Virus record (IMG/VR): IMGVR_UViG_2888055400_000002
Location: 18,064-82,063 of that record
Source: a virus
Lineage: Duplodnaviria > Caudoviricetes
Strand: one strand, 5' to 3'
DNA: 64,000 bases
Shown here: positions 10,593 to 47,550 of the stretch, piece by piece
Layout of the letters: each line of letters starts with the position of its first letter
Position numbering within the stretch: position 1 is the stretch's first letter
Translations under genes and position numbers: made by a program
The notes under the pieces: generated by a model
Told to the model about the DNA's origin: nothing
Database searches by the model: none
What the model saw: only the letters and a program-made list of their open reading frames with translations

Positions 10593-10617
10593 GCGTTTTT
10601 TATTGGGGAGTTAACGT

Positions 10618-13600: not shown

Positions 13601-16600
13601 TTCACGCCAATGTGCTCACCAATTTAGGGGCAACAGCTTATAAAAACACCTATATGCATTGTAATGCAAACACAGATGCTTATTGTTATGGCTATCAAGC
13701 TGATGGAAGCCGCGATGTTTCTTTAGATATAGCCAATGGCAAGTATCGCCAAACTGGCTCAGAAGCTTTGGAGAGCGTTCCTGGTCTTGTCCAAGCGGGT
13801 GGCACGTTGAATTTGGTGGTCGATCAACTCCACAACACGGCAGCGGAAGGTTCGATTACAGGGGATGCGCATTTTGAGGCAAAAGCCGTTGGGGGTGATC
13901 CACTAGGGGCGCTGAGCGGTTTGACTGGGGCTGGTGCTTTGTTTACGCCAAATATCGCCTTAGATGGTACAGCTGGTGTTTCGGATGGGAGTTCATTGCC
14001 TTTACCAAAACCCCAATCGGGTGGAATTGGGGGCACGCTACCCAACCAGAATTTCCTTTATGAAACGCGGGCAGAATTCCTTGATGTTGGCAAGTTTTAT
14101 GGCTCAGCCTATTATTTGAACAGAATTGGCTACAAACCTGATCGGGAGATTTTTTTCTTAGGCGATGCTTATTTTGAAAAGCAATTGATTGAGAAACAAA
14201 TGCGTGATCTGGTTGGTCAGGGTTTGGGAAAAGGTTCCTTTATTCCTGGAAGTGATGCTATTGAACAAGTCAAAACCTTGCTTGATGTCGGGGCGGAATA
14301 TGCAAAAGCACACAATCTCCCTTTTGGTGAGGCTTTGAGTAAAGAACAATTGGCGTCCCTAGAAGCCCCGATGGTGATTTATGTGCGCCAACAGATCAAG
14401 GGCATGGATGTTTATGCACCGGTGCTTTACATCCCTGAAAAAGACAGAGCCTCCTTTGTTTCTGCTGGTGCTTTGATTATGGGGGATGATGTCAATATCA
14501 CCAGCCAGAATACAAGCAATTCAATGATAACCAATTCTGGGCGGATAAATGCAAACCACCAATTGCATGTGCATGGTGGGGATCTCCTCAGTCAAGGGGG
14601 GCATTTTGCTGCTGGTGGTGATGCTGTTTTACTTGCGGAGAAGAATATTCGTTTTGAAGCAGGGCGAACAACGGTTGACGGCGTGGAGACCGTTTTAAAC
14701 ACCGAGGCGCTTTCTACAGGGGGCAATGCGAGCGTGATCGCCAAACAAGATCTCACAGCCTCAGGGGTTAAGATCAGCACAGGGGGCGATCTTGCCATGG
14801 CCACAGAACAAGGCAACTTGACGATAGGTTCAGCAGAAACCCACTACCATGATGAACAGGGTGATGCCACCATGCATCATAAATCTGCGTTAAACTCTGG
14901 AGGATCGACGACACTTGTCTCTGGAAAAGATTTGAATATCTTAGGCTCTGATGTTCAAGCAACGGATAATCTTTCCTTACAAGCAAAAGGCAACGTTTCG
15001 ATTGATGCCACGCGCAACAGTGCCAATAGCCATCACGGGGATCAAACCTCTCATGTTGCCTTACACAATGGCTCTCATTTAAGTTCTGGAAAAGAGACCA
15101 CGGTTCTCTCTGGAAAAGATATTCATATGGCTGCTTCCGATATAGATGCCAAGGGCAATGTTGTTCTTGGTGCACAAGGGGAAATAGCGATAGGGGTGAG
15201 AGAAGATGAAATGGAGTATCATCTTCGCGCCAACAACACCAAAGTCGATATGCAAGCCTTGATTTCCCAGGGATCAACAATAAAATCTGGAGGCGATACC
15301 ACTGTCGTTGCAGGGCAGGATGGAAAGAAGCATGATCTCACCATCACAGGCAGTTCTGTTGCGGCTGATGGCAAGGTGGGGCTAAAAGCCAGCAATGATA
15401 TTGTGATCACCAATGCAGAGGATAGCTTACATTATGAGATGTCGTACCATAAAGACGGGGGAACATTCAGCAGCAGCAAATCCGTGCATAACAAGGTGGA
15501 TGCTGTCCAAGTTTCCGGTTCACTCATATCTGGGGGCAAAGGCGTTGCCATTGACTCAGGAAACAACACGGAAGTTGTAGCCTCGACGCTCATAGCCGGT
15601 AAGGCAGGGGAAACGTCAGGAGAGAAAACACCAGAAGATCAGGCAAAAGCGGATATTACCATTCACTCTGGTGGAAATATTGTTATCAAAGGTGCCCAAG
15701 AACATTTTGATCAGCAACAGCAATCCTCGTCAAGTAGCCTTTTGCACGAGGAATCTTCAGATAAATCTGAATCGCACACCACAACGGTTTCCTCTGTTCT
15801 AGGTGCGACGGGCAACATTGATATGGAAGCGCAAGGGGATGCCAAGATTACTGCTTCTCATCTGCTTTCTGGTCAAGACATCAATGTGAGTGCAGAAGAT
15901 GTGATGATTGATGGCATGACAGACCACCATAGCAGCCATTCAGAGGAGCATGAAACGGGTTTTGGCGTGGGATCAGGCAAGGGCTTTGTATCGATATATG
16001 GAAGTGAAGGCAAAACGCAAAATGAAGAGAGTTTTGAACATCAAGGCTCTTCTTTGAATGCGGATGGCACTCTCAACATCACCGCCAAGAAAAAAGATGT
16101 GACAATTGTGGGCTCTGATGTTGAAGGGGAAAATGTTCATCTTACCGCAGCGCATGATGTTAATGTGCTTGTTGGCCATAATAGCCATAAGTCAAGCTCA
16201 AAAGAAGAGCGGGAAGGTTTTGGCATTCAGTTTGAAAAGAGCAGCAGCAGTGCCTCTGTCGGTGTTGGGGTTGCCAGTGCGAAGGATACGGGTGATGAGT
16301 GGGAAACGACCTCTGTTCAATCGCACATCACGGCGAAGAAAGATGTACAGATCACTGCCGGCAATGATGTGACCATGCAAGCGGCAGATGTTTTGGCGGA
16401 TCGTGATCTAAATATCGATGCCGGCAATAATGTCACACTATCAGAAAGCCATGATATCTCCAATACACAGGAAACCCATGAAAAATCCTTTGCCGGTGTT
16501 ACAACCACTGTCAATGTGGGTGTTCTTGATACTGTACAAGGCTTAAAAGATTCAGCGGACCACATGAATAATAAGGATGGAAATAACACAGTTATTAATG

Positions 16601-18750
16601 GCGTACTGACTGGCATGAAAATCAATAACCTCTTTAACAAAGGTAGGAATTTTGTGAGTTGGCTGAGTGGCAATACAGGGGAAAGGGGCAATATCAGCAA
16701 AGGACTGAGTAGCCCATTAGGAGGGGTGGGGGGCTCCACCAAGGATGCTCTTGCCAATATGGCTGATGTTTCTGCTAGCGTAACCGTGGGCTTTAAGACA
16801 GAGAAAGCAGAAGCCTCTTTTCAAACCTCCACGGCGGTGACAGGAACAATGGAAGCAGGGCGTTCTGTTAACATGCAAGCCCACAAAGGCAGCATCCATG
16901 ATATTGGAGGTGACATTATCGCCGGTACCAATCCTGTTTATGCAAATGATGAGCAGAGTGGAAATATCAACTTAGAAGCAGGGAAAGATATCACCTTTGA
17001 AAGTGCACAAACCACGCAAAGCACACAAAACCACAATGAAAGCGCCTCGGTAAATGTTGGGTATAGCTATGGTACCGGTGGTGCTGGGGGAACAGGCAAT
17101 GCTTCCTTTAGTCAAGGGGAAGGCTCCAGTGAGGAAGTTCAACACAAAAACAGCCATCTTAGTGGCACCGGTACTGTTCACACCAACAGTGGAGGAAACA
17201 CCACATTTGCGGGGGCCGTGGTTTTGGGAGACCATGTAGAGATGAATGTTGGTGGTGATTTGACCATTACCAGCCGCAGTGATACGGGTCAAACCTCTAA
17301 CAAGCAGAAATCTGCTTCTGTTGGGTTTGGTGGCAGCAAAAGTTTTGATGCAGGCTCAACAAGCTTCTCCTTACAAAAGGATCAATCCTCCAGCGATTAT
17401 CACAGTGTTGTGGAGCAATCAGGCATCAAAGCGGGTGATGGCGGTTTTAAGATCAACGTTAAAGATAAAACAACCCTGACTGGGGGGCTGATTGCCAGCA
17501 CCGCGTCGCCAGACAAAAACAGCCTGACCACAGGAAGCATCAGTACCAGTGACATCACCAACAGTGCGAGTGCACAAGCCAGCAGCCATGGTTTTAGCCT
17601 TTCTGGGAACGACACGATAAAAAACATTGCCAAAAATGCTTTAAGTCATGGGAAAGCCAAGGATGCGGCGGACGGGGAAACCAAATCCGCCATCAGTGAT
17701 GGCACCATCATCTTAACCGATGCAACCAACCAGAGGGCGATGGGGCAAGATGCTGGACAAATCATTGATGCCCTCAACCGCAACACCGCAGCAGCCCACC
17801 AAGCGGTAGTGCCGCTGGATACCACATCGCTTGAGGGAGCAGTGCATAATCGCCTCGATATGATCAATGATTTATCAGATGAAGGATTTGGATACCTTGG
17901 TAAAATTTATAAAATCTCATATGTCAAAGAGCATTTTGAGGGTGAGGTTTTGCATGATGAAAATGGCAATGTCATCTATGCAACAGATAAAAATGGGATC
18001 CCTATAAGAGATAGCTATGGAAGAAAAATACCTCTGTATCATTATTTAACGCCAGAGGAAGAGAAGCATTTACAAAAAGGCTCTGATGGCAACCGGCATA
18101 TGTTCTACAATGGAATTCGCACCTCACCAGATGACGCTGCGCGCTATGCTGTCCAGTTTGCTGATAATGATCATGATCCCCTTTATTTTACAGTTTTTCC
18201 ACAAGCTGAAGACAAGCTCGTAGAGTTAGGGGTAGCGGTTTTTCAGAAGTTCCTAGAAGGTAGAGTTTTTTTTGGATTAACCAATTCAACAAAGAAGTTC
18301 CAGAATTTTCTATCTCTCTATGGCAATGATGGAGCGATTGTTGATGCGCATAGCCGTGGTAGCTTGACAGTAGGCAATGGAATGCGTGACTTTAAAAAAC
18401 GTGGCGTCCACGATATAGCAGAAAACACAAGTGTTAATCTTTTTGGTCCAGCTTTTAACGCTCAAGACATGGCAAATACGTTATATATCTTAAGTAATGG
18501 CAAGCAAACCTATGTGAACTTGGAAAACCATAAATATGACTTTGTTGGCGGATGGTTAGCTGGTCACAATCCTTATACCTTTGACAAAGTACCCGCTGGT
18601 AATGGTCCTTGGAAAGAGGGGGGGAAAATAATATTTAGTTATCCCAGTCCCCATGCTTGTTATGGGCATGCGGATAAATCATGTACATCGCGCTATGGTT
18701 CACCTCATCGTATAAAAGTTCATTCAACTTCTACAGGGAGGAAAAAATGA
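10618..18750 (+). CDS. fhaB: Filamentous haemagglutinin-family TpsA / CdiA-like exoprotein with a lipase-like C-terminal domain
   Basis: TPS domain (GLSHNKY, ILNEV, NPNGISCDGCGFIN), long Gly/Ser/Thr haemagglutinin repeats, C-terminus with AHSRG motif, stop overlaps a lipoprotein start (ATGA). Confidence 0.92.
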   Translation: MRYEKRANRAALLGVLVSSTMLKKVFLGGIGFSCLLAPSVVQAQITSDPNAGSAYRPDIVAAPNGVPSIDIVTPNGKGLSHNKYYDFNIGNLGVIFNNHAQEVGQSQLGGIMPGNPHLRFTGSAKVILNEVTSGKRSALNGPAEVFGRQADVIIANPNGISCDGCGFINTPHATLTTGVPEIDASGFLKGFEVRGGDITFGAKGANFFSGKGAVDIVDIVSRTVHFEGAVAGKDIGVSAGTGHFDYASRQMKELTDITGKPEYAIDGSALGALQADQIKLVATEQGVGVRMRHDMAANAGQLQLSADGKISLKNVFGHGGVVLQSKSKSVLAKSVTSKKHIEIAAKKDVTLEMVGADGDLKVEAQGGLLSIAGKATSGGNMELFSLDAMKVSGLGSGADIALEAGGDLKLEGVVLAEGNLKAHAGGDIQAGLLAGGVDMAATGAAGVVVLGAQGDVDLQSVGGRINAANIYGAGDVTLVSYDGLFVSQSILSHQNVAIHAQLNTNAPVHFGQVLAYGKANIEGGAVDFASLMTGGDAVLTVGSLDAGTLMTGLDFVSSQVSPSNPSGALVFYDKGSLSITAQRGIKVEHIISGGNIDLFAGDDIYYDQVIGYGTATLTSVSGGISVENVLSAKGDVRLTANTLDLSNDRSHIYTPQTLFLNADHIYVSGSTLIYGGLDFNSTNVLDIHHARLQAITTEGGTGDILFVAPGVMVDETTSVLAARDFVIKTGRLENSGQLAAGQDLAFSVTGDVTNSKTGLIYVKGNGALKVDGTVLNDFGAIIAEGDLFFTNADGTGKSLSLVNKAGFIQAGGNLNIQTNTLKNEADSTPVITEKTEYSDISFERSKGSDQLSDGMLYHDTRLNSWGKGKLSKWPVLSDTKNFIFKQQIWASKEETYGKTTLKDGTVYKAFTWEYNDNRKGIEQYSWNGDRWREGFLGLSFLNENWSHMTEETVTQEFSHKPTVSGMIESHGNLIINADSIDNHYSIIRAEGNADIHANVLTNLGATAYKNTYMHCNANTDAYCYGYQADGSRDVSLDIANGKYRQTGSEALESVPGLVQAGGTLNLVVDQLHNTAAEGSITGDAHFEAKAVGGDPLGALSGLTGAGALFTPNIALDGTAGVSDGSSLPLPKPQSGGIGGTLPNQNFLYETRAEFLDVGKFYGSAYYLNRIGYKPDREIFFLGDAYFEKQLIEKQMRDLVGQGLGKGSFIPGSDAIEQVKTLLDVGAEYAKAHNLPFGEALSKEQLASLEAPMVIYVRQQIKGMDVYAPVLYIPEKDRASFVSAGALIMGDDVNITSQNTSNSMITNSGRINANHQLHVHGGDLLSQGGHFAAGGDAVLLAEKNIRFEAGRTTVDGVETVLNTEALSTGGNASVIAKQDLTASGVKISTGGDLAMATEQGNLTIGSAETHYHDEQGDATMHHKSALNSGGSTTLVSGKDLNILGSDVQATDNLSLQAKGNVSIDATRNSANSHHGDQTSHVALHNGSHLSSGKETTVLSGKDIHMAASDIDAKGNVVLGAQGEIAIGVREDEMEYHLRANNTKVDMQALISQGSTIKSGGDTTVVAGQDGKKHDLTITGSSVAADGKVGLKASNDIVITNAEDSLHYEMSYHKDGGTFSSSKSVHNKVDAVQVSGSLISGGKGVAIDSGNNTEVVASTLIAGKAGETSGEKTPEDQAKADITIHSGGNIVIKGAQEHFDQQQQSSSSSLLHEESSDKSESHTTTVSSVLGATGNIDMEAQGDAKITASHLLSGQDINVSAEDVMIDGMTDHHSSHSEEHETGFGVGSGKGFVSIYGSEGKTQNEESFEHQGSSLNADGTLNITAKKKDVTIVGSDVEGENVHLTAAHDVNVLVGHNSHKSSSKEEREGFGIQFEKSSSSASVGVGVASAKDTGDEWETTSVQSHITAKKDVQITAGNDVTMQAADVLADRDLNIDAGNNVTLSESHDISNTQETHEKSFAGVTTTVNVGVLDTVQGLKDSADHMNNKDGNNTVINGVLTGMKINNLFNKGRNFVSWLSGNTGERGNISKGLSSPLGGVGGSTKDALANMADVSASVTVGFKTEKAEASFQTSTAVTGTMEAGRSVNMQAHKGSIHDIGGDIIAGTNPVYANDEQSGNINLEAGKDITFESAQTTQSTQNHNESASVNVGYSYGTGGAGGTGNASFSQGEGSSEEVQHKNSHLSGTGTVHTNSGGNTTFAGAVVLGDHVEMNVGGDLTITSRSDTGQTSNKQKSASVGFGGSKSFDAGSTSFSLQKDQSSSDYHSVVEQSGIKAGDGGFKINVKDKTTLTGGLIASTASPDKNSLTTGSISTSDITNSASAQASSHGFSLSGNDTIKNIAKNALSHGKAKDAADGETKSAISDGTIILTDATNQRAMGQDAGQIIDALNRNTAAAHQAVVPLDTTSLEGAVHNRLDMINDLSDEGFGYLGKIYKISYVKEHFEGEVLHDENGNVIYATDKNGIPIRDSYGRKIPLYHYLTPEEEKHLQKGSDGNRHMFYNGIRTSPDDAARYAVQFADNDHDPLYFTVFPQAEDKLVELGVAVFQKFLEGRVFFGLTNSTKKFQNFLSLYGNDGAIVDAHSRGSLTVGNGMRDFKKRGVHDIAENTSVNLFGPAFNAQDMANTLYILSNGKQTYVNLENHKYDFVGGWLAGHNPYTFDKVPAGNGPWKEGGKIIFSYPSPHACYGHADKSCTSRYGSPHRIKVHSTSTGRKK

Positions 18751-19160
18751 AAAAAGCCTTTAAATTATCCAGTGCGATAGTTCTGTTTATTATAGCTGGG
18801 TGTAATTTTTTTAAGCCTTCTCCAGGTTACTTATATATGTGGGAGAAACCGGGGGCAGATTTTACTGAAGTAGGAAAAGCTTTGTTGGAATGCGGAATGC
18901 CAACACCTTATGATGTCGATCCAGAAAATAGAAAGCTTAGTGTTAATGAGGATGCAACAATTTATGCTTGCATGATCCAAGCAGGATTCCGCTATAAAGA
19001 TGAAGAGGTGTCGAGGGCTGGAGGATGGTGTTATACATTTAAAGAGGAAAACCTACCCATTTGTCGTCCAGGGGCTATCATTCCGCAACGAAGTGTCAAG
19101 AAGCGCTTAAATAGCCCTTTTTGTAAAAAATATAAAAATGCACCTGAATGCCAACCTTAA
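18747..19160 (+). CDS. Lipoprotein, putative cognate immunity protein
   Basis: MKKAFKLSSAIVLFIIAG-C lipobox; translationally coupled to the TpsA; Cys pattern LLECG..ACMIQAG..WC..PICRPG..SPFC..PEC. Confidence 0.8.
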   Translation: MKKAFKLSSAIVLFIIAGCNFFKPSPGYLYMWEKPGADFTEVGKALLECGMPTPYDVDPENRKLSVNEDATIYACMIQAGFRYKDEEVSRAGGWCYTFKEENLPICRPGAIIPQRSVKKRLNSPFCKKYKNAPECQP

Positions 19161-19180
19161 GTCTTGCTTGTGATGATCAA

Positions 19181-19227
19181 CAATCCGCCATCCTTGCCTT
19201 CGCTTGGACTGGCGGGATTGTTTTCTT
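19181..19227 (+). terminator. Stem-loop after the immunity gene (copies at 21849-21888 and 27070-27109)
   Basis: CAATCCGCCA...TGGCGGGATTG followed by a T-rich tract; three copies. Confidence 0.55.
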
Positions 19228-19338
19228 AATCCACCATCTCAATTTAGTCCTACCTGTCTTAAACACAGTATAGATAGAAAATATCAACAGGCTTTTGAGC
19301 TTTTTTATCGTAAATAAATCCATTGAAAGAGGGGAAAA

Positions 19339-19698
19339 ATGAAGAAAACTTTAAAACTATTGAGTTGCATGGCTCTGTTAAGTATCGCTGGATGTGTTAA
19401 CTCAATTCCCTCACTTTCTCCAGCAATATGGAGAAAGAAAATACTTTTAGAATGTGGAGTACCGGATTTTGATAAGGTTGTGGCGCTAGATTTGAATCAA
19501 TTTGCTAGTATTGAAATGTGTATGGCGCAATCAGGTTTTCGCCCTAGCTTTCCAATACAAGGTTGGTGTGAAAATCATAAATCCGAAAAGCTTCCCATTT
19601 GTCGTCCTGGTGCTGTCATGCCTCAACGAAGTGTTGAGAGACGTTTAAAGAGCCCTTATTGTAAAAAGCATCCAGAACAATATGAATGTAAACCTTAA
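19339..19698 (+). CDS. Lipoprotein, orphan immunity paralog
   Basis: Lipobox SIAG-C; same Cys framework as 18747..19160. Confidence 0.8.
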   Translation: MKKTLKLLSCMALLSIAGCVNSIPSLSPAIWRKKILLECGVPDFDKVVALDLNQFASIEMCMAQSGFRPSFPIQGWCENHKSEKLPICRPGAVMPQRSVERRLKSPYCKKHPEQYECKP

Positions 19699-21418
19699 CC
19701 ACAATGAAAGCGCCTCGGTAAATGTTGGGTATAGCTATGGTACCGGTGGTGCTGGGGGAACAGGCAATGCTTCCTTTAGTCAAGGGGAAGGCTCCAGTGA
19801 AGAAGTTCACCAGAAAAACGCCCATATTAGTGGCACGGGTACTGTTCACACCAACAGTGGAGGAAACACGACACTTGCAGGGGCCGTGGTTTCTGGAGAC
19901 CATGTAGAAATGGAGGTTGGGGGTGATTTGACCATTACCAGCCGCAGTGATACGGGTCAAACCTCTAACAAGCAGAAATCAGCTTCTGTTGGTTTTGGTG
20001 GCAGCAAAAGTTTTGATGCAGGCTCAACAAGCTTCTCCTTACAAAAGGATCAATCCTCTAGTGATTATCACAGTGTTGTGGAGCAATCAGGCATCAAAGC
20101 GGGTGATGGCGGTTTTAAGATCAACGTTAAAGATAAAACAACCCTGACCGGAGGACTGATTGCGAGCACCGCGTCGCCAGAAAAAAACAGCCTGACCACA
20201 GGAAGCATCAGTACCAGTGACATCACCAACAGTGCGAGTGCACAAGCCAGCAGCCATGGGGTTAGCGTTTCTGGGAACGACACGATAAAAAACATTGCCA
20301 AAAATGCTTTAAGTCATGGGAAAGCCAAGGATGCGGCGGACGGGGAAACCAAATCCGCCATCAGTGATGGCACCATCATCCTGACAGGTGCAACCAACCA
20401 GAGGGCGATGGGGCAAGATGCTGGACAAATCATTGATGCCCTCAACCGCAACACCGCAGCAGCCCATCAGGCAGTAGTGCCGCTGGATGCCACATCACTT
20501 GAGGGGGTGATACATAATCGCCTCAATATGATCAATGATTTATCAGATGAAGGATTTGGATACCTTGGTAAAATTTATAAAATCTCATATGTCAAAGAGC
20601 ATTTTGAGGGTGAGGTTTTGCATGATGAAAATGGCAATGTCATCTATGCAACAGATAAAAATGGGATCCCTATAAGAGATAGCTATGGAAGAAAAATACC
20701 TCTGTATCATTATTTAACGCCAGAGGAAGAGAAGCATTTACAAAAAGGCTCTGATGGCAACCGGCATATGTTCTACAATGGAATTCGCACCTCACCAGAT
20801 GACGCTGCGCGCTATGCTGTCCAGTTTGCTGATAATGATCATGATCCCCTTTATTTTACAGTTTTTCCACAAGCTGAAGACAAGCTCGTAGAGTTAGGGG
20901 TAGCGGTTTTTCAGAAGTTCCTAGAAGGTAGAGTTTTTTTTGGATTAACCAATTCAACAAAGAAGTTCCAGAATTTTCTATCTCTCTATGGCAATGATGG
21001 AGCGATTGTTGATGCGCATAGCCGTGGTAGCTTGACAGTAGGCAATGGAATGCGTGACTTTAAAAAACGTGGCGTCCACGATATAGCAGAAAACACAAGT
21101 GTTAATCTTTTTGGTCCAGCTTTTAACGCTCAAGACATGGCAAATACGTTATATATCTTAAGTAATGGCAAGCAAACCTATGTGAACTTGGAAAACCATA
21201 AATATGACTTTGTTGGCGGATGGTTAGCTGGTCACAATCCTTATACCTTTGACAAAGTACCCGCTGGTAATGGTCCTTGGAAAGAGGGGGGGAAAATAAT
21301 ATTTAGTTATCCCAGTCCCCATGCTTGTTATGGGCATGCAGATGAAAGGTGTCGACAAGCTTACGGAGCCTCTCATCGTATAAAAGTTCATTCAACTTAT
21401 ACAGGGAGGAAAAAATGA
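19697..21418 (+). pseudogene. Orphan cdiA 3' module 1 (5'-truncated)
   Basis: Near-identical to cdiA 17029-18750 except the last ~20 codons; no signal peptide or TPS domain. Confidence 0.85.
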
Positions 21419-21825
21419 AAAAAGCCTTTAAATTATTAACTGTAATAGTTTTGTTAATTATTGCTGGATGTGAGGATTTTTTCAAGCCTCCTCTAGGTAA
21501 CGTATATGGGTGGGAGAAGCCAGGTGCAGATTTTACTGAAGTAGGAAAGGCATTGTTAGAATGCGGAATGCCGAGTCCTGAATATCTTGATAGAGAAAAT
21601 AGGCGCTTGAGCTATAATGATAGTGCAACAATTTATGCTTGCATGATCCAAGCAGGATTCCGTGATAAACTTAAAAAAGAGGTGGGAACTTGGTGTGAGA
21701 ATTTTAAAGCCGAAAATCTCCCCATATGTCGACCAGGCGCTGTCATCCCAAAACGAAGTGTCAAAAAGCGCTTGAATAGCCCGTTTTGTAAAAGAAGTCC
21801 TGTGCAGCCTGAATGCCAACCTTAA
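21415..21825 (+). CDS. Lipoprotein, putative immunity protein of orphan module 1
   Basis: ATGA overlap; lipobox IIAG-C; family Cys pattern. Confidence 0.8.
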   Translation: MKKAFKLLTVIVLLIIAGCEDFFKPPLGNVYGWEKPGADFTEVGKALLECGMPSPEYLDRENRRLSYNDSATIYACMIQAGFRDKLKKEVGTWCENFKAENLPICRPGAVIPKRSVKKRLNSPFCKRSPVQPECQP

Positions 21826-22007
21826 GTCTTGCTGCTGATCACAATCAACAATCCGCCATCCTTGCCTTTGCTTGGACTGGCGGAATTGTTTCCTTAATTC
21901 ACCATCTCAATTTAGTCCTAACCTGTCTTAAACACAGTATAGACAGAAAATATCAACAGGCTTTTGAGCTTTTTTATCGTAAATAAATCCATTGAAAGAG
22001 GGGAAAA

Positions 22008-22487
22008 ATGAAGAAAACTTTAAAACTATTGAGTTGCATGGCTCTGTTAAGTACAGCTGGATGTCAGTTGGGAACTCCTCCCCCATCAACGTTGGCTTTA
22101 TGGGAAAAGTCTGGAACAGATCGGGCTGTAATCGAACAATCACTTTTAAAATGTGGCTGGAAACCAGTTTATGCTTCTTCTAGTGATATGAATGCCTATG
22201 CAAGTGAATTTGCCTCAGTTTATGAGTGCATGAAAAAAGCAGGTTATCGATATAAATTGCAGGATTCAAAGGGGATTTATTTTACACAACCTCCGAAAAG
22301 TGACTCGTTCCTAACCGATCTCATGATAGCTGGATATCAGAAATTTATGGACAATGATACTTTTGGTGTCAGCAATACGACCAGAAAAGAACGGGCTATG
22401 ATAGCGCATTTTGAAAATGAAAGAAAACGTCAACAAACGAAAAAATCTTTGCAAAAGCGATCATCAAAGCGTCCTACTCATTCTTAA
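22008..22487 (+). CDS. Lipoprotein, divergent immunity-family member
   Basis: Signal peptide nearly identical to 19339 (MKKTLKLLSCMALLS.AGC); WEK.G.D..LLKCG..ECMKKAGYRYK retained, C-terminal half unrelated. Confidence 0.7.
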   Translation: MKKTLKLLSCMALLSTAGCQLGTPPPSTLALWEKSGTDRAVIEQSLLKCGWKPVYASSSDMNAYASEFASVYECMKKAGYRYKLQDSKGIYFTQPPKSDSFLTDLMIAGYQKFMDNDTFGVSNTTRKERAMIAHFENERKRQQTKKSLQKRSSKRPTHS

Positions 22488-22541
22488 AGAGAGAGTTGGA
22501 CAAAAAGCACGAATGATGAAGGGAGTCAAAATAGTGCCCTT

Positions 22542-25500
22542 CTTATTCAAGCGGGTGGCACGTTGAATTTGGTGGTCGATCAACTCCGTAACACGGCAGC
22601 GGAAGGTTCGATTACAGGAGATGCGCATTTTGAGGCAAAAGCCGTTGGGGGGATCAGCACCGGGGGTGATCTTGCCATGGCCACAGAACAAGGTGATTTG
22701 ACGATAGGATCAGCAGAAACCCATTACCATGATGAACAGGGTGATGCCACCATGCATCATAAATCTGCGTTAAACTCTGGAGGATCGACGACACTTCTTT
22801 CTGGAAAAGATTTGAATATCTTAGGCTCTGATGTTCAATCCCATGATGATTTGAACTTAAAAGCTGAGAGGAATATTTCGATTGATGCCACGCGCAACAG
22901 TGCCAATAGCCATCACGGGGATCAAACCTCTCATGTTGCCTTACACAATGGCTCTCATTTAAGTTCTGGAAAAGAGACCACGGTTCTCTCTGGAAAAGAT
23001 ATTCATATGGCTGCTTCCGATATAGATGCCAAGGGCAATGTTGTTCTTGGTGCACAAGGGGAGATAGCGATAGGGGTGAGAGAAGATGAAATGGAGTATC
23101 ATCTTCGCGCCAACAACACCAAAGTCGATATGCAAGCCTCGATTTCCTAGGGATCAACAATAAAATCTGGAGGCGATACCACTGTCGTTGCAGGGCAGGA
23201 TGGAAAGAAGCATGATCTTACCATCACAGGTAGTTCTGTTGCGGCTGATGGCAAGGTGGGGCTGAAAGCCAGCAATGATATTGTGATCACCAATGCAGAG
23301 GATAGCTTACATTATGAGATGTCGTACCATAAAGACGGGGGAACATTTAGTAGCAGCAAATCTGAGCATAACAAGATTGATGCTACCCAAGTTTCCGGTT
23401 CACTCATATCTGGGGGCAAAGGCGTTGCCATTGACTCAGGAAACAACACGGAAGTTGTAGCCTCGACGCTCATAGCCGGTAAGGCAGAGGAAGCATCAGG
23501 AGAGAAAACACCAGAAGATCAGAAACAAGCGGATATTACCATTCACTCTGGTGGAAATATTGTTATCAAAGGCGCCCAAGAACATTTTGATCAGCAACAG
23601 CAATCCTCGTCAAGTAGCCTTTTGCACGAGGAATCTTCAGATAAATCTGAATCGCACACCACAACGGTTTCCTCTGTTCTGGGGGCAACGGGCAACATTA
23701 TCACACAATCAGACAAAGAGACCACAATCACTGCTTCTCATATGTTTGCAAATGAAGATATTCATGTGACGGGAGAAAATGTGACGATTGATGGCATGAC
23801 GGACCACCATAGCAGCCATTCACAGACCCATGAAACAGGTTTTGGTGTGGGATCAGGCAAGGACTTTGTATCGATCTACGGGAGTGAGGGAAAGACAGAA
23901 AATGAAGAAAGTTTTGAGCATCAAGGCTCTTCTCTCAATGGAAAAAATATCACCATCACGGCCACCAAAAAAGATGTGAATGTGGTGGGCTCTGATTTTA
24001 CTGCGCAAGAAAATATTCATGTTTCGGCAGCCCATGATATCAATGTTTCACCTGGTCACAATAGCCATAAGTCAAACAGCCAAGAAGAGCGGGAAGGTTT
24101 TGGCTTTCAGTTTGAAAAGAGCAAAAGTGGTGCCTCTGTCGGTGTCGGGATTGCCAGCGCGAAAGACACAGGGGACCAATGGGAAAATACCAATACACCA
24201 TCTAATTTTAAAGCGGGCAAAGATGTACAGTTTAGTGCCGATCATGATGTGAATTTACAAGCGACAAATGTTTTGGCAAATCGTGATGTCAACATTGATG
24301 CTGGCAATACTATCACACTATCAGAAAGCTATGATACCTCTAACGCAAAAGAAAAGCACGAAAAGTCTTTTGCTGGTGTGACAGGCTCTGTCAATGTTGG
24401 GGCTCTTGGTACCGTACAGGGCATTAAAGATGCAGTAAAGCAAGCTAAAAATAAGGATGACAAACACCATATTGCCAATGGTCTTATTGCTGGTCTAAAA
24501 GGCTATAATCTCTTTACCAAAGGCAAAAGTTTTTTCAATTTTCTGACTGGTAACACAGGAGAAAGGGGCAACACCGCAAGAGCTCAGGGCAATGTAGCAG
24601 GAAATTTGGCTGGCTCTACCAAGGATGCTCTTGCCAATATGGCTGATGCTTCTGCGAGTGTGACTGTGGGCTTTAAGACAGAGAAAGCGGAAGCCTCTTC
24701 TCAAACCTCCACGGCGGTAACAGGAACAATGGAAGCAGGGCGTTCTGTTAACATGCAAGCCCACAAAGGCAGTATTCATGGTGTTGGAGCTGACATTATC
24801 GCCGGTACCAATCCAGTCTACGCATTAAACAATGATGAGCAGAGTGGAAATATCACCTTGGAAGCAGGAAAAGATATTACCTTTGAAAGTGCACAAAACA
24901 CGCAAAGCACACAAAACCACAATGAAAGCGCCTCGGTAAATGTTGGGTATAGCTATGGTACCGGTGGTGCTGGGGGAACAGGCAATGCTTCCTTTAGTCA
25001 AGGGGAAGGCTCCAGTGAGGAAGTTCAACACAAAAACAGCCATCTTATTGGCACAGGCACTGTTCACACCAACAGTGGAGGAAACACCACACTTGCGGGG
25101 GCAGAGGTTTCTGGAGACCATGTAGAGATGAATGTTGGGGGAGATTTGACCATTACCAGCCGCAGTGATACGGGTCAAACCTCTAACAAGCAGAAATCTG
25201 CTTCTGTTGGGTTTGGTGAGAGCAAAAGTTTTGATGCAGGCTCAACAAGCTTCTCCTTACAAAAGGATCAATCCTCTAGTGATTATCACAGTGTTGTGGA
25301 GCAATCAGGCATCAAAGCGGGTGATGGCGGTTTTAAGATCAACGTTAAAGATAAAACAACACTGACTGGGGGGCTGATTGCGAGCACCGCGTCGCCAGAC
25401 AAAAACAGCCTGACCACAGGAAGCATCAGTACCAGTGACATCACCAACAGTGCCCATGCTAAAGCCAGTAGCCATGGGGTTAATGTTTCTGGTGGCGGTG

Positions 25501-26654
25501 TTTTGCAACAGGGGAAATATGGCGTCATAAAAAACGTGGCTAAAAATGCTTTAAGTCATGGAAAAGCCAAGGATGCAGCGGAAGGGGAAACCAAATCTGC
25601 TATCAGTGATGGGACTATCATCCTTACTGATACAACTGGACAGAGGGCGATGGGGCAAGATGCTGGACAAATCATTGATGCCCTCAACCGCAACACCGCA
25701 GCAGCCCACCAGGCTGTAGCACCGCTGGATGTAGCACTGCTTGAGGGAGCCGTGCATAATCGCTTAGACATGATCAATGATTTATCGGATGAAGGATTTG
25801 AAATCGCTGGTCAGGGCTTTGTAAACATGTTTATCAAAGAGCATTATCTGGCTACCGTTGAGCACGATGAAAATGGCAATGTGATCTATGCAAAAGATGA
25901 AAATGGGAAATATATAAAAGACAGCCATGGAAACCCACAGCCACAATATCATTATTTAACGCCTGAGGAACAGCAGAATTTACAAAAAGGTTCTGATGGC
26001 AAGGTTCATGTTTTCCTCAATGGTATTCTTACAACACCCGATGAAGCAGCCCATAATGCGGTTCAGTTGGTTGATAACAAGAATGATCCACACTATTTTC
26101 TGATGTTTCCCCATAGCGATTCGCTCTTGGTAGAAGGGGTTATTGCAGGGTATCAGTATTTTTTAGAAGGTAATTTGGGTGGTCTGACCAATTCGGCAAA
26201 GAAGTACCAGAATCTGTTGTATAGCTTTGGCAATAAAGGATTGCATGTTGATGCCCATAGCCGCGGCAGTATGACAGCGGGTAATGGATCGTATAATTTA
26301 GCAAAGCAGGGTGTTCACGGTATAGCAAAGGAAACAACGATTAATTTTTTTGGACCAGCTTTTAATACTCAAGACATGGCAGATACGTTATATATCTTAA
26401 GTGATGGCAAGCAGGATTATGTTAATTTGGAAAATCATAAATATGACTTTGTTGGTGTAAAGATTGGCAAAAATCCTTATACCTTTGAACAAATACCCCC
26501 TGGAAGTGGTCCCTGGAAAGAAGCAGGGCAAATATTTAAGGGCTACCCCAGTGTCCATGCTTGTTATGGTCATCCGAGTGATGCTTGTACAAAGTTCTAT
26601 GGTTTGCCTAATCGTACGCCAATTTATTCAAAATATTCAGGGAGGAAAAAATGA
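22542..26654 (+). pseudogene. Orphan cdiA 3' module 2 with an internal deletion, a nonsense codon and a divergent lipase-like C-terminus
   Basis: Starts with homology to cdiA ~13786, jumps to ~14772 at 22652, CAG>TAG at 23148-23150, then open to 26654; AHSRG motif retained. Confidence 0.85.
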
Positions 26655-27049
26655 AGAAAATTTTGAAATTATTAAGTGGTCTCATTCTGTTAACTATCGC
26701 TGGATGTAATATCGATAAGCCTTCTCCAGGGGCTCTGAGTATGTGGGAGAAGCCTGGTGCAGACTTTACTGAGATAGGAAAAGCATTGCTAGAATGTGGC
26801 ATGCCAACGCCTTACGATATTTTTCCAGAAAACCAACAACAGAGCATTAATGCAAAAGCAACAATTGATGCATGCATGGTTCAAGCAGGATTTCGCTATA
26901 AAGGAAGAGGTGACTGGTGTTATACTTTTAAAGAGAAAAATCTTCCCATTTGTCGTCCAGGGGCTATCATTCCGCAACGAAGTGTCAAGAAGCGCTTAAA
27001 TAGCCCTTTTTGTAAAAAATATAAAAATGCACCTGAATGCAAGTCTTAA
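26651..27049 (+). CDS. Lipoprotein, putative immunity protein of orphan module 2
   Basis: ATGA overlap; lipobox TIAG-C; 3' end nearly identical to 18747..19160. Confidence 0.8.
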   Translation: MKKILKLLSGLILLTIAGCNIDKPSPGALSMWEKPGADFTEIGKALLECGMPTPYDIFPENQQQSINAKATIDACMVQAGFRYKGRGDWCYTFKEKNLPICRPGAIIPQRSVKKRLNSPFCKKYKNAPECKS

Positions 27050-27215
27050 GTCTTACTTGTGATGACCGACAATCCGCCATCCTTGCCTTTGTTTGGAATG
27101 GCGGAATTGTTTCCTTAATCCACCATCCATAACATTGCGTCACAGGATGGATTTTGCTATATTCTTATCGGTTTATAAGAGAAAGCCTTGTCCATCCTTA
27201 TGTGACAAGGTTTTT

Positions 27216-27422
27216 TTATGCCACATCACTGAGATGTTGACGTTGCGTTTTGGCTTTTTCAATCACATCCATCAGATCCGATTGTAACCAACGCGATAAA
27301 GAACCAAATTTTAAAGGCTTTGGTAAAGATCCATTGGTGACATGCCGACGGAATGTTGAAACGCTTATATGCAATAATTTTGCACTTTCGCGATCTGTAA
27401 GAAGAACATCATTTTCAGTCAT
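27216..27422 (-). CDS. alpA: AlpA-family HTH regulator/excisionase
   Basis: LLTDRESAKLLHISVSTFRRHVTNGSLPKPLKFGSLSRW pattern; next to an integrase. Confidence 0.85.
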   Translation of the reverse strand: MTENDVLLTDRESAKLLHISVSTFRRHVTNGSLPKPLKFGSLSRWLQSDLMDVIEKAKTQRQHLSDVA

Positions 27423-27595
27423 AACTTATCCTTTCAATCTAAAAAAATATTAACAAATCATAAGTATTTATTAACCATATTTTGTTGAACTTGGAAAGTA
27501 AGTTTATTCATAAAAAACAGTACTTTATGATGTATTTTCTCATTTGATAATTTATGAGTCTTATTGAAACGAAATGAGAGAACAAAGAGAGAAAG

Positions 27596-27604
27596 TTATC
27601 CACA
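27596..27604 (+). promoter_or_regulatory. Perfect DnaA box
   Basis: TTATCCACA; conserved in island B at 46167-46175. Confidence 0.4.
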
Positions 27605-27641
27605 GATAATGGAATAAAAATGGGGTACAAGACCCCATCTA

Positions 27642-28808
27642 TTAAGATTGCCCCGTGACATAAGCCGCCCATTTATCCATATAAACACGGCGCTGTTCTA
27701 AATAGTCAGTACGACGGTAGGCACGTTCTACTTGTCCACCGACCACATGACCTAGAATGGTTTCTGCTACCTCATAGGGAGCATCGGTTGTTTCTGCTAG
27801 CCAATCCCTTAAACTAGACCGAAATCCATGCGGGCAGGCATTAAGTCCAGTTTTTTGCATGTAGATTGACATGCTCCTCTCAGCAAAGGGACCATGACTT
27901 TTAAGAGAAAAAAAGAAATCATTACGAGAAAGCAGGCGCGCTTGTTTCAAAATTTCTAATGCCTCTGATGATAAAGGCACGCGAAACTCTGTTGTAGCAT
28001 CACGCCTTCCTTTCATATTCTCAGCAGGGATGGTCCATATATCACCATCAACTTGATCTTTATGGATATGACGCAAAGGATTTGTACGAACACCTGTCAG
28101 AATAAGCAGACGCAAAGCCAATTGTGTCATAGTTGGTGTTTTGCAGAGTGTTTGATAAAAAGCCGGTATCTCTTTCCAATCCATAGCAGGCATATTTTTA
28201 ACTTTATGGCGTTGTTTTCCCAAGAGTGCGCGTGCTTTTTCTGTTGCTTGTAAATCAACATCTAAACCCAAGGCAGCAGCATATTTGAGACATATATTAA
28301 GACGATTAAGAGCTCTATAAGCTGTTGCAGCTTTTGCATGCCAGATAGGAGCAAGTGTATTGCGTATATCGGTTTGTGTAATCTCTGAAACCGGCATACA
28401 ACCTAATTTAGGGAGAATATAAAGTTTTAAAGGTAAAAACCACTCACTATTTTTACCATCTCCTTTTAATTCTGCTTTACGACTTTCAAAAGCATCCACG
28501 GCAATATCTTTTAAATAATGAAGATTACGCATTGCCTCACGCTTTTGTTTGTCACGTTCTTTAATGGGGTCACGACCCTCATGCAAAACAGAACGCCATT
28601 GGGTTGCCAATTCACGGGCTTTTTTTAAAGAGACATTTCTTAAGGCACCCAAGCCCATTTCACGACGCCGCCCGTGGATGGTATAGCGATAAAGCCATTG
28701 AGCACCCCCATCTTTACGCTTATGAAGTAACAAGCCGGCACCATCATTATATTTGCCAGCCCCCAATGTTGCGACAGCCCTTGCATTAAGACGATTCATA
28801 AGAGGCAT
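27642..28808 (-). CDS. P4-family tyrosine integrase
   Basis: Arm-binding N-terminus (GKYNDGAGLLL...RRREMGLG...VSLKKARE); catalytic R (GVRT), K (MKG), HGFRS, LGH and AY. Confidence 0.95.
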   Translation of the reverse strand: MPLMNRLNARAVATLGAGKYNDGAGLLLHKRKDGGAQWLYRYTIHGRRREMGLGALRNVSLKKARELATQWRSVLHEGRDPIKERDKQKREAMRNLHYLKDIAVDAFESRKAELKGDGKNSEWFLPLKLYILPKLGCMPVSEITQTDIRNTLAPIWHAKAATAYRALNRLNICLKYAAALGLDVDLQATEKARALLGKQRHKVKNMPAMDWKEIPAFYQTLCKTPTMTQLALRLLILTGVRTNPLRHIHKDQVDGDIWTIPAENMKGRRDATTEFRVPLSSEALEILKQARLLSRNDFFFSLKSHGPFAERSMSIYMQKTGLNACPHGFRSSLRDWLAETTDAPYEVAETILGHVVGGQVERAYRRTDYLEQRRVYMDKWAAYVTGQS

Positions 28809-28969
28809 TTTTGCTCCTTTCTAAACGGTTTTTTACCCACACGATAACCCCGCTTGTGATGTGCAAGTAAGTGACTTTAATTGATTGAACATAAGATGAT
28901 TTGAGATGAGAGAATCTTACAATATTCGGGGGTCTAATTCAATATGCAAAACAGTAAATTATCATTACA

Positions 28970-28982
28970 AATCAATGCCTTG
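28970..28982 (+). promoter_or_regulatory. IHF consensus site at the end of island A
   Basis: AATCAA-TGCC-TTG matches WATCAANNNNTTR. Confidence 0.55.
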
Positions 28983-28984
28983 TC

Positions 28985-29071
28985 TTAGAGCGTCAACGCA
29001 TTCTGAATGAACAAATGCACAATCAGATTATGCGTTCACGAGCAGATACATATAGAGCACGAAGCATTTAG
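28985..29071 (+). pseudogene. 3' remnant of a phage gene interrupted by island A (portal by position, unproven)
   Basis: Open frame LERQRILNEQMHNQIMRSRADTYRARSI* from the island boundary to a TAG 12 nt before the next ATG. Confidence 0.5.
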
Positions 29072-29083
29072 AAAGGTGAAAGA

Positions 29084-29977
29084 ATGAATGCACAAATGAG
29101 TGAAGAAATGGAAGGTATGAATGAAGAGTACACAGCAGAACAGCAGGTATTTGATGATGATGGGTATTTTGATGGCGGCAGTGACAGTGAAACCGTTACC
29201 AGTGATGATATAAGTTCTCAAGAGCCGGTCTCACAGCCTGTTCATGAAGCTTCGGACATATCTACGGTAGAAGAGCAGCGTGCAAAAGAACGAGTCCATA
29301 AATCACGTGAAGCTCTTATGAAGTTTTATGATCCGAAATCTCAGGAAACTTCTGTTGACGGTGAAAATATGCCTCCTGATATGAGTCAAGACATCGTTGG
29401 CTATATGGCTTGGATGGGAAAGAAGCTTCAAGAGCAAGATGCATTTATTAAATCGCAACAGGAAGTGCAAAGGCAGGCTTTTGAACAGCAACAATATGAT
29501 ACGCATTTAAATGAGTTTTTAGAAAATTCTGTTACAGCGGTTAAAAAGAAGTACAGTGATTTTGATGCAGCGGCGGATTATCTTTATGAGGTTCGTGCTA
29601 AGGAGTTGAGTGCTTGGTCAAGTCTTTATCCAGAATATTCGCAAAAAGGCACGATAGATGCAGTTATCGGTCAACAATTACGGGCGGTTGTTGCTACCTG
29701 CGCGGAAAAAGGAATTAATCCGGCAGAAGCGATTTATACGATAGCACAAAACCTTGGCTATCAGAGCAAAGCAGTACAAGCGAATAATCAGGTTGCAGCG
29801 CTTCAAAGCCGGCAGAATTCAGCGAAAACTTTAACGGCATCAGGAGGAGGGGGCAGTGTTGGACCAATGACCAAACAAACTCTTTCCGATATGTCAGAGA
29901 AGGAATTTGATGCGTGGATATCCAATCCGAAAAATGAAGCCCGTTTTTATGAAATTATGGGTGCAGACCCCGATTAA
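29084..29977 (+). CDS. Putative phage scaffolding protein
   Basis: Acidic N-terminus, coiled-coil character, immediately before the major capsid gene. Confidence 0.65.
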   Translation: MNAQMSEEMEGMNEEYTAEQQVFDDDGYFDGGSDSETVTSDDISSQEPVSQPVHEASDISTVEEQRAKERVHKSREALMKFYDPKSQETSVDGENMPPDMSQDIVGYMAWMGKKLQEQDAFIKSQQEVQRQAFEQQQYDTHLNEFLENSVTAVKKKYSDFDAAADYLYEVRAKELSAWSSLYPEYSQKGTIDAVIGQQLRAVVATCAEKGINPAEAIYTIAQNLGYQSKAVQANNQVAALQSRQNSAKTLTASGGGGSVGPMTKQTLSDMSEKEFDAWISNPKNEARFYEIMGADPD

Positions 29978-42992: not shown

Positions 42993-44786
42993 ATGGCGAT
43001 ACCCTATCATACGCATGAGTATCAAGTACCAGCAGCAACGAAAGAAGAGATCATAGAGGGGACCTCTATGGATACGGTTGTTGTTCCTAAGTTGTTAGGG
43101 ACGGCATCTCTTTATGCCTATGAAGCCTTTGCAACGGCAGAGCAGGGTGTCCATGCACAGCAAGCCTCGGAACGTGCAACGGCATTAGCTACGACAGCCA
43201 AGCAAACAGCAGATACAGCGAAAAGAGTTGCGGATGAGGCGAAGGAGTTGGTTGATGCATCTGCGGTCACGGCAGGGCAAGCCGTTCAAACAGTGAATGC
43301 GGTTGTTACAACAGCTAACGAGGCAAAGGCAACAGCAGAGCAGGCATTGGCAGCAGGACGTGATGCAAAAAGCAGTGCAGAGACAGCGGTTAACAACTCT
43401 CAGAGTGCGAATGAAGCAGCTTCCAGAGCAGAGACAGAGGCAACAGCAGCGAAGACCACAGCAGAAGAAGCAAAGCAGTTATCAGGAGAAGCGAAGAGCC
43501 AATCAGAGAATGCAGAGGCGTTAGCACAAGCAGCTAAAAGCGCATCAGACGAAGCGAAGCAAGGAATAGAAACAGCCAAGGCAGAAGTTTCAGGAGCAGT
43601 CTCTATTGCAAGGGAAGCCAAACAAGCGTCTGAAGGAGCAGAGAGAGGTGCCAATGAAGCAAAGCAGATGGCGACAGATGCTAAGGGGACAGCGGATGAG
43701 GTAAAATCAACGGCAGAAGCAGTTAAGAGCTTAGTAGATAAAGCAGTCTCTGATGTGCAAGATGTGAAGAATTCTGTTGCAACAGCGGTAGAAAGTTCCA
43801 ATGAAGCGAAGGCAACGGCAGAAGAGGCAAAGGATGTAGCAGAGAAGGGTAAAGGAACTTCAGAAACAGCGATTTCTACAGCTAATGCAGCAAAGGTTAC
43901 ATCTGAAGATGCCAAACAAAAGGCAGAAGCAGCAGTTTCTAAAGCGGATCAGGCGCAACAGGTTGCGGATGAAGCGAGGCGAGTAGCCAATGAAATGAAA
44001 GCAGTAGCAGAGCAGGCGGTGAGTGTTGAGAGACAAGCAGTGCATGCACTTGATGAGTCTGTTAAGGGATTGGTCGAAGATGCCAAACAGAAGGCAGAAA
44101 CAGCACAGACGTTAGCGCAAGAAGCGAAAGCAACAGCCGGTGAGGCAAAAGAAGTTGCAGATCAGGCTAAGAGTTCATCCGAAACAGCAACAGCGAGCAG
44201 TACGGAAGCTCTCACAACAGCGAATGGTGCAAAAAGCATAGCAGAGACAGCGTCTAGAACAGCTGGTGAGGCAAAGGAAACAGCGTCTAGTGCGCTCTCT
44301 GTAGCCAATGATCTTAAGCAATCGGTTGATCATGTCAAGAATACAGCGGAAGCAGCAAAAAGGACGGCAGAAGGGGCAGAACAGAAGGCATTAACAGTAG
44401 AAACGCTAGCTTCTGAAGCGAAGATGAAATCTGTCGAAGCCAAACAATCTGTAGAAGAAGTGAAGAGCACGGCAGATTTGGCAAAGAATATAGCTGATGA
44501 AGCGAAGCAATCCGGTGATGCAGCGCTCAGTGCAGCAAATGATGCGAAGAGTGCGTCAACGGCAGCTTCAAGCTTGATTGATACTGTAAAGCAAACAGCA
44601 GATGAAGCAAAGGCAGTAGCAGAGCAGGCAAAGGGTGCATCAGAAACGGCGACAGTTACAGCAAATGCATCACAAGAGACGGCATCAACGGCAAAAGCCT
44701 TGGCAACTGAAGCGAAACAAACCGCCGATGATGCCAAGCAAGCCGTTGGCGATGTGAAAGTTATAGCAGAAACAGCGGTAACCACG
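42993..44786 (+). pseudogene. Tail-fibre gene, 5' part (Ala-rich coiled-coil stalk), interrupted by island B
   Basis: Ala/Glu/Lys/Thr repeats stop abruptly at ...ETAVTT; the last 16 residues of the called ORF are read from island sequence. Confidence 0.88.
44776..44786 (+). repeat. attL core / target duplication
   Basis: CGGTAACCACG, identical to 60676-60686. Confidence 0.9.
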
Positions 44787-44788
44787 TA

Positions 44789-44801
44789 CAACACATTGAT
44801 T
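44789..44801 (-). promoter_or_regulatory. IHF consensus site at attL
   Basis: CAA-CACA-TTGATT, the reverse complement of WATCAANNNNTTR. Confidence 0.55.
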
Positions 44802-44962
44802 TATAATGATAATTTGCTGTTTTGCATGTTGAATTAAACCCCCGAATATTGTAAGATTTTCTCATCTCAAATCATCTTATGTTCAATCAATTAAAGTCAC
44901 TTACTTGCACGTCATAAGTGGGGTTATCGTGTGGGTAAAAAACCGTTTAGAAAGGAGTAAAA

Positions 44963-46129: not shown

Positions 46130-46132
46130 TAG

Positions 46133-46155
46133 ATGGGGTCTTGTACCCCATTTTT
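46133..46155 (+). terminator. Intrinsic terminator after the integrase gene
   Basis: ATGGGGT-CTTGT-ACCCCAT-TTTT; conserved in island A near 27616-27638. Confidence 0.6.
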
Positions 46156-46349
46156 ATTCCATTATCTGTGGATAACTTTCTCTCTTTGTTCTCTCATTTC
46201 GTTTCAATAAGACTCATAAATTATCAAATGAGAAAATACATCATAAAGTACTGTTTTTTATGAATAAACTTACTTTCCAATTTCAACAAAATATGGTTAA
46301 TAAATGGTTATTGATTTGTTTCCATTTTTTTAGATTGAAAGGATAAGTT

Positions 46350-46550: not shown

Positions 46551-46641
46551 AAAAAACCTTGTCACATAAGGATGGACAAGGCTTTCTCTTATAAACCAAT
46601 AAGAATATAGCAAAATCCATCCTGTGACGCAACGTTATAGG

Positions 46642-47545: not shown

Positions 47546-47550
47546 AAAAG

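Follow-up and report, generated by a model that had tools for sequence, protein, structure and literature searches.

An island between remnants of two portal gene lineages in a Bartonella prophage contig

Background

Islands with tyrosine integrases of the P4/lambda type carry a short core repeat at their ends, and in tyrosine recombinases the core-type binding sites flank the overlap. The fha-repeat islands of Bartonella grahamii are described as a 10-28-kb multi-copy segment with a two-partner secretion operon of the fhaC/fhaB type (Berglund et al., PMC2697382). Integrase/fha repeats with phage genes on either side have thus been published for this genus. In Bartonella sp. Tel Aviv, an 800-kb inversion between two prophages was seen experimentally, and this inversion is reported to have proceeded through an identical segment, 15 kb long, that carried fha, integrase, portal and terminase genes, giving rise to chimeric prophages (PMC6257571).

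Here I analyse a stretch of 64,000 nt (the window), which comprises bases 18064-82063 of an 82,063-nt virus record (the contig; coordinates preceded by L001 or by "contig" refer to it, unmarked ones to the window). Two related islands, A and B, lie inverted relative to each other in the window, and their integrase ends face a phage late-gene block of 15.8 kb between them. The original prediction held that island A is inserted in a head gene of this phage, portal by the usual gene order, and that a single prophage has been hit twice in coding sequence.

Results

The homology between the two islands ends at 28983, exactly where it had been placed, as is observed from their inverted repeat (arms 27460-28983 and 44788-46311, 1,524 nt, 92% complementary); comparison with intact portal genes puts the true last island base one position further, at 28984, the C ahead of TTAGAGCG. 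The IHF consensus noted just before this end is also present: WATCAANNNNTTR is matched at 28970-28982 (AATCAATGCCTTG) and likewise at the equivalent spot of island B. The two strands of the window have 11 such matches in total, and these are candidate sites by consensus match. Past the junction follow 28 open codons (28985-29068), which read LERQRILNEQMHNQIMRSRADTYRARSI, then a TAG (29069-29071), a purine-rich stretch and, 12 nt after the TAG, the ATG (29084) of a scaffold-like gene, again as had been noticed. The flank does not resemble the repeat of island B, CGGTAACCACG. Neither is there a tRNA gene at the junction, as ARAGORN finds 0 tRNAs in the whole window. A tRNA target for island A was rejected, with the sole tRNA of the contig, a tRNA-Thr at contig 661-736, lying about 14.6 kb left of the left end of island A.

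Nine Bartonella loci were obtained when species-representative genomes were searched with the scaffold-like protein. The 28-residue peptide is present in eight of these (tblastn, 57-100% identity), and in each of the eight the distance from the end of the peptide to the scaffold-like gene is 16 nt; the ninth, L007, begins within the scaffold gene. In seven loci an open frame of 672-685 codons has the 28 codons at its end. The full-length protein of one of them, L004, matches the P22_portal profile PF16510 from position 2 to 588 of 594 (E 1.7e-123), and also phrog_156, annotated as portal protein. In the eighth locus, L003 (B. vinsonii subsp. vinsonii CIP 103738), the island junction is the same as in the window, and the two sequences agree at 100% over 12,891 nt. 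The 28 codons correspond to portal residues 645-672, in a C-terminal extension past the PF16510 profile, and are assigned to the portal by collinearity with the seven full-length relatives, not by a profile match. The gene order expected of P22-like phages is observed in these relatives, where the large terminase precedes the portal gene and the scaffold-like gene follows it (in L004, terminase-homologous DNA to 3969, portal 3970-5988, scaffold-like gene from 6001). From these comparisons, the frame at 28985..29071 (+ strand, 28 codons and TAG, collinear in eight of nine loci) is the defunct 3' end of a P22-like portal gene from a Bartonella vinsonii prophage lineage, here called Y. The proposed identity of the peptide, the C-terminus of a phage protein and of the portal in particular, is thus borne out by tblastn, by the full-length frames and by their PF16510 match.

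The scaffold-like gene (29084..29977, + strand), situated between portal and capsid, is the first intact late gene past the junction; it is without Pfam match and matches phrog_24697, a family annotated as of unknown function. It is followed by the capsid gene (30069-31196, PF13252), a SU10-type adaptor, tail genes and tail fibres. Directly past the capsid gene lie two tandem paralogues of 126 aa (31217-31597 and 31609-31989, + strand), 77% identical at the DNA level over 240 nt, neither with a Pfam match. A blastn search of 28984-31196 against a phage collection returned a single weak match, to a Rhizobium phage capsid over 5% of the query.

To the left of island A, the contig contains the tRNA-Thr, phage early genes, a large terminase gene (L001:13816-15156) and a short frame on the + strand. 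Among the early and replication genes, beside an SSB gene, lies a MazE/MazF (PemK) toxin-antitoxin pair (L001:11332-11912, + strand). The short frame (L001:15114-15365) matches positions 1-46 of 594 in PF16510 (E 6.7e-11) and consists of 70 portal codons (L001:15141-15351, + strand) up to ...KEQRRPVM, continued by the island-derived KAQY and a stop. Therefore, the left end of island A lies neither in a tRNA gene nor in an unrelated locus, as it abuts a portal remnant, and the order in the contig is terminase, N-terminal portal remnant, island A, C-terminal portal remnant and scaffold-like gene. A + strand gene had been anticipated at this end and is indeed there; it is interrupted at a different portal position, however, and does not fuse in frame with the 28 codons. 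In the coordinates of L004 the left junction of island A falls at 4201|4202 and the right one at 5901|5902, which leaves 1,700 nt between them in portal coordinates, a length not divisible by three. A duplicated CTTAGAGCG core was sought at the left end and has no copy there; the right flank shares no word of 11 nt or more with that end, the longest match being a 10-mer inside the island. With remnants that end 1,700 nt apart and no left copy of the right core, island A is not a simple insertion with flanks that fuse in frame, contrary to what had been proposed. No intact portal frame exists in the contig, only the 70 codons and the 28 codons, 31.7 kb apart.

Several portal lineages occur in Bartonella, and 85 of 90 genomes from this genus gave portal matches. 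The N-terminal remnant is identical at 60 and 61 of 71 residues to the intact portals of two other genomes, here called X-type, versus 42 of 71 for the Y-type portal of L004. The C-terminal remnant shows the opposite affiliation, with 27-28 of 28 residues identical to the C-termini of Y-type portals (L004, L005) versus 3 of 28 for an X-type portal on contig C13 of genome G001 (see below) and 3 and 7 of 28 for the two intact X-type portals. By sequence, the two remnants thus derive from two different portal genes, the N-terminal one X-type and the C-terminal one Y-type. The flanking DNA has the same tendency: for the left arm (contig 14300-15351), identity is 86-88% with X-type loci and 78-81% with Y-type ones, and for the right arm it is 77-94% with loci of the Y-type. 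As the prophages are mosaic, assignment of whole arms to a lineage, which on the left is based on approximately 1 kb, is only suggestive. A third portal lineage, about 67% identical to the Y-type, is represented by G001:C10:26632-28344 and by one copy in most of the 90 Bartonella genomes; with open frames of about 630-640 codons it is near-universal and mostly single-copy, and may be part of a conserved phage-derived cluster, e.g. a gene transfer agent region.

The genome of L003 is also available as a second assembly of B. vinsonii subsp. vinsonii, G001, and a protein search in this assembly yields exactly five portal pieces: residues 1-657 on contig C17, 70-661 on C13, 9-78 on C15, 643-672 on C12, and as the fifth a divergent copy without interruption on C10. 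The two junctions of the present contig are found on C15 and C12, which are identical to it across the junctions; C12 is 100% identical over 27,695 nt and C15 99.45%, with all 81 differences more than 4 kb from the junction. C13 contains the body of an X-type portal (585 of 615 residues identical to an X-type portal), which is cut at codon 70, hereafter site 1, by the integrase end of another island, and its portal coordinates overlap those of the N-terminal remnant by 9 nt, CTGTTATGA. C17 contains a Y-type portal (602 of 652 residues identical to L004), which is cut at the position of the window's right junction, hereafter site 2, by the distal end of another island. The C17 junction reads ...GCATGAA TTAGAGCG ACAACGTAT AATGTT... 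and overlaps the window junction by TTAGAGCG and nine similar bases. The true left partner of the 28984/28985 junction is therefore located on C17, another contig of the same species. As there are five portal pieces in all, without spare N- or C-terminal fragments among them, each of the four island junctions is present once, and since their halves are complementary the four junctions pair as two simple insertions, one in site 1 of an X-type portal and one in site 2 of a Y-type portal. In the present contig, one island is bounded by the X left junction and the Y right junction. Variant contigs in G001 are 93-99% identical to the interior of island A; this assembly, which here consists of many small contigs, does not link the two ends of the island.

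Site 2 (28985..29001, + strand) consists of the 8-nt TTAGAGCG, the presumed crossover or overlap, and beside it TCAACGCAT, which nearly repeats the island end ATGCCTTGT in inverted orientation (7 of 9). The 8 nt and nine similar nt are repeated at the left junction on C17 and at both junctions of an insertion in another Bartonella genome, G036. On a 2.7-Mb contig of this genome, portal codons 1-650, a 15.55-kb island, the last 28 codons and the scaffold gene are found in one piece. This is a simple insertion exactly at the window's site 2, with an 8-nt repeat, TTGGAGCG, and a 9-nt near-repeat; its junctions read ...GCATGAA TTGGAGCG ACAACGTAT... and ...CAATGCCTTGT C TTGGAGCG GCAACGCAT..., and the island end ATGCCTTGT forms an inverted repeat with the sequence past the 8-nt repeat. 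Such an inverted repeat around the site 2 overlap would be the layout expected of core-type binding sites. In genome G088 a like insertion is located 12 nt upstream of site 2 (site 2'), with a 15-nt repeat, TTGATGCAACAACGC. Being occupied in two genomes, site 2 appears to be a real, reusable attachment site.

Other island ends also occur in phage genes. In G035 and G039 an island end is located at portal nucleotide 369, G039 has a further one in the scaffold gene and G036 a further one in the terminase gene. In Bartonella sp. MM73XJBT.G (L006 1-1620), the integrase end of an island abuts phage DNA within the 3' part of the terminase gene, some 200 nt ahead of where the portal starts, a further phage-gene insertion of this island family. 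All ten portal matches in four other genomes are uninterrupted at sites 1 and 2. Thirty integrase-proximal and 11 distal flanks gave no common target consensus for site 1, site 2 and the island B site, a loose A-rich tendency ahead of a conserved ACAA being the only trend. A CAACGCAT-like half-site is present at site 2 and site 2', not at site 1 or island B, and the inverted repeat of the site 2 islands is absent from the distal ends of islands A and B. Short direct repeats bound island B (11 nt), the G036 island (8 nt with the 9-nt near-repeat) and the G088 island (15 nt), and not island A.

Island A extends over 1..28984 of the window (- strand) and as a whole over contig 15352-47047 (31,696 nt). 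By Pfam it carries YdcK-type beta-solenoid repeat genes, a broken Type ISP gene, TpsB (8826-10592), a TpsA/FhaB-like gene (10618-18750) and a tyrosine integrase of 388 aa with P4-type domain architecture (27642..28808, - strand), next to which lies the multi-copy integrase-proximal attachment arm (28809..28984, - strand) with the IHF-like match. Its two-partner secretion locus (8826-27049, + strand) begins with TpsB and a 2,710-aa TpsA/FhaB-like protein, and further partial hemagglutinin-repeat cassettes follow at 19682-21418 and 22563-26654, each with small downstream ORFs. Repeats among the cassettes (D3-D12) are 74-100% identical, their C-terminal domains are without Pfam match, and the layout resembles the orphan toxin/immunity cassettes of contact-dependent inhibition systems. 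The Type ISP copy of island A (3039-8011, - strand) is split into at least four ORFs (5630-8011, 5186-5587, 4406-5152 and 3039-3797) with 78-93% nucleotide identity to that of island B, and thus looks like a decayed defence gene.

Island B (44787..60675, + strand) contains an integrase (44963-46129), Toprim/DUF3987 primase-helicase genes, which by Pfam are absent from island A, an intact Type ISP restriction-modification enzyme of 1,666 aa (49755-54755, + strand) and YdcK-type repeat genes. Ahead of the DUF3987 gene the DUF7146/Toprim region is split into two 144-aa ORFs (46624-47058 and 47111-47545, + strand), which may represent a frameshifted primase. Both islands end in four to five paralogous YdcK-type beta-solenoid/hexapeptide-repeat genes with 18-nt periodic DNA repeats (205-1591, - strand; 56180-59991, + strand; L001:16037-18069, - strand), and a capsid- or packaging-related Pfam match was found in neither. 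P4-like or PICI-like phage satellites combine an integrase and a primase or replicase with genes that hijack the capsid or packaging of a helper; of these traits, island B shows the integrase and the primase genes, and island A the integrase. The 11-nt direct repeats of island B are located at 44776..44786 and 60676..60686, at a spacing of 15,900 nt that keeps both in one codon phase, and mark the break between the 5' part of a tail-fibre gene (42993..44786, + strand, with alanine-zipper repeats and tail-fibre PHROGs) and its 3' part (60687..62342, + strand, with the second domain of Mtd); the repeat family D7 of the 5' part resumes at 60699. By its sequence, island B is a clean, in-frame insertion in the tail-fibre gene, flanked by the 11-nt repeat.

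The integrases of the two islands, 388 aa each, are identical at 350 of 388 residues, and both match PF13356, PF22022 and PF00589, i.e. arm-binding, core-binding and catalytic domains. The stretches GVRT and HGFRSSLRDW and a C-terminal tyrosine, visible when the two are compared, are motif-like and may hold the catalytic R-H-R-Y residues; a sequence search of PDB matched the core-binding domain only (2khv, E 8e-4). The 175-nt integrase-proximal end is present in 18, 9, 40, 23 and 11 copies in five Bartonella genomes, and the distal end of the A/B type is rarer (4, 2, 0, 2 and 3 copies). The flanks of sampled island ends are diverse: 6 of 30 integrase-proximal ends abut genes of the P22-like Bartonella prophage family, and a tRNA lies at the junction in none of the 30, one locus having a tRNA away from the junction. 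What precedes a fourth distal end of the A/B type in the second assembly (G001:C4:155133, L061) is a GC-rich hairpin (AGGGGACGCC...GGCGTCCCCT) rather than phage sequence, and hence this island family is also found at non-phage sites.

Discussion

The identity of the two remnants, both junctions, their partners elsewhere and an exemplar of simple insertion are observed directly. They suggest, with good though not complete confidence, that island A is a hybrid of two sibling integrase/fha islands from the portal genes of two prophages. In the scenario that I propose, one island would have entered site 1 of prophage X and a sibling island site 2 of prophage Y, whereupon homologous recombination between the two nearly identical islands would have linked the left arm of X (early genes, terminase and portal codons 1-70) to the right arm of Y (the last 28 portal codons, scaffold, capsid and tail). 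At site 2, the integrase may have recombined the 8-nt overlap TTAGAGCG beside the portal's TCAACGCAT, a mimic of the terminal inverted repeat of the island; its catalysis at the portal sites is deduced from the anatomy of the junctions. The expectation that one prophage was hit twice in coding sequence holds as far as the late block is cut in both portal and tail fibre, and fails in that the flanks of island A come from two portal lineages.

The order of these events is inferred, and so is the biological nature of the join. Alternatively, two simple insertions, at site 1 in X and at site 2 in Y, may exist side by side, and the 82-kb contig may have jumped between near-identical siblings during assembly. 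The linkage of the ends of island A (contig 17126-39276) is found in this contig alone, as the second assembly confirms each junction and not their linkage and, of the words sampled from the junction stretch, no public run contains a fraction above 0.28; the 93-99% identical variants in G001 could have served as substrate for exchange or for an assembly join alike, and the four junctions pair perfectly as two simple insertions. However, the contig is without N throughout and passes through other long island repeats, no sign of a misjoin is seen in the data, and chimeric prophages of a like kind are reported as experimentally proven in a related Bartonella (PMC6257571). I therefore consider real homologous exchange the probable origin of the hybrid, and an assembly join rather unlikely.

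Could a single prophage with a single portal gene account for the same pattern, if one or two island insertions were followed by a 1.7 kb portal deletion next to or between the islands? Both remnants are portal, on the same strand and in the right order around one island, and ATGA is present at both portal positions. Such a history is nevertheless very improbable, as the lineages differ (60-61 of 71 residues X-type at the N-terminus versus 27 of 28 Y-type at the C-terminus), the junctions that the deletion would have destroyed are present and joined to complementary X and Y halves, and the five pieces in G001 leave no spare terminal fragment. An integrase-mediated deletion between sites 1 and 2 was dropped because the remnants are from different portals. 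It is also next to inconceivable that, instead of a gene remnant, these 28 codons represent a frame open by chance or a piece of the island. The frame is short and has no ATG, GTG or TTG start at its 5' end, but it is kept as the terminal codons of full-length portals in seven loci, and the conservation of the peptide together with its spacing to the next gene in eight of nine loci identifies it as a portal end, not a product of chance.

If island A is a hybrid of two insertions, as preferred here, the composite prophage would be unable to package DNA or to form infectious particles, since it lacks a portal and its tail-fibre gene is split. Island A would not be cleanly excisable by its integrase, as a precise excision is not expected from mismatched ends with different overlaps, and island B could excise and restore the tail-fibre frame. 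What was called a single 82-kb provirus would thus be two prophage halves stitched through an island, and without a portal gene it should not be counted as an inducible phage. The junctions also offer a base-level reason why the fha/integrase repeats of Bartonella are always seen adjoining phage genes, namely that they are located inside them, and they provide concrete attachment sites, such as the 8-nt overlap beside the CAACGCAT-like half-site in the portal.

Whether the island family preferentially lands in morphogenesis genes of one P22-like Bartonella prophage family, as a prophage-disabling or prophage-riding element, is a more speculative matter. Over at least five genomes, the mapped phage targets comprise the terminase, scaffold and tail-fibre genes and, in the portal gene, at least four positions; all the same, I regard a true preference as improbable. 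If it existed, it would mean more than survival in dispensable DNA, as the islands would lock the phage in the chromosome and use its neighbourhood for amplification and transfer.

In comparison with described systems, the remnant in the window keeps the last 28 codons of the P22-like portal, past the PF16510 profile that its full-length relatives cover as a whole. The islands resemble those of the P4/lambda type in their arm-binding, core-binding and catalytic domains, the direct repeats of 8-11 nt around island B and the G036 island, their IHF-like site and the inverted core-type repeat next to the overlap at site 2. They differ in that they are not located in tRNA genes at the sampled junctions, and in having many targets, whose overlap sequences differ, and as many as 40 copies in one genome. 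Island A shares cargo and a multi-copy integrase end with the fha-repeat islands as described for B. grahamii (PMC2697382), with TpsB (PF03865), TpsA (PF05860 and PF13332) and phage genes on both sides; by contrast, a primase and a Type ISP enzyme take the place of fha in island B and in the G036 island. Base-level junctions, or a location inside phage ORFs, are not described in the sections of that report consulted here (PMC2697382), whereas this study places the island ends at defined positions of portal, terminase, scaffold and tail-fibre genes.

The closest parallel is the Tel Aviv case, in which, according to the account drawn on here, two prophages were likewise fused via a long identical segment with fha, integrase, portal and terminase genes (PMC6257571). 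That event was seen directly, by an evolution experiment, hybrid assembly, PFGE and PCR (PMC6257571), whereas the present one is deduced from sequence. The probable hybrid island A is thus part of a dead patchwork prophage of a kind already described in Bartonella, and as an instance of a process already demonstrated in this genus it represents a gain in detail, not in principle: the sites of the islands can be mapped within phage reading frames, and one island would bridge two prophages.
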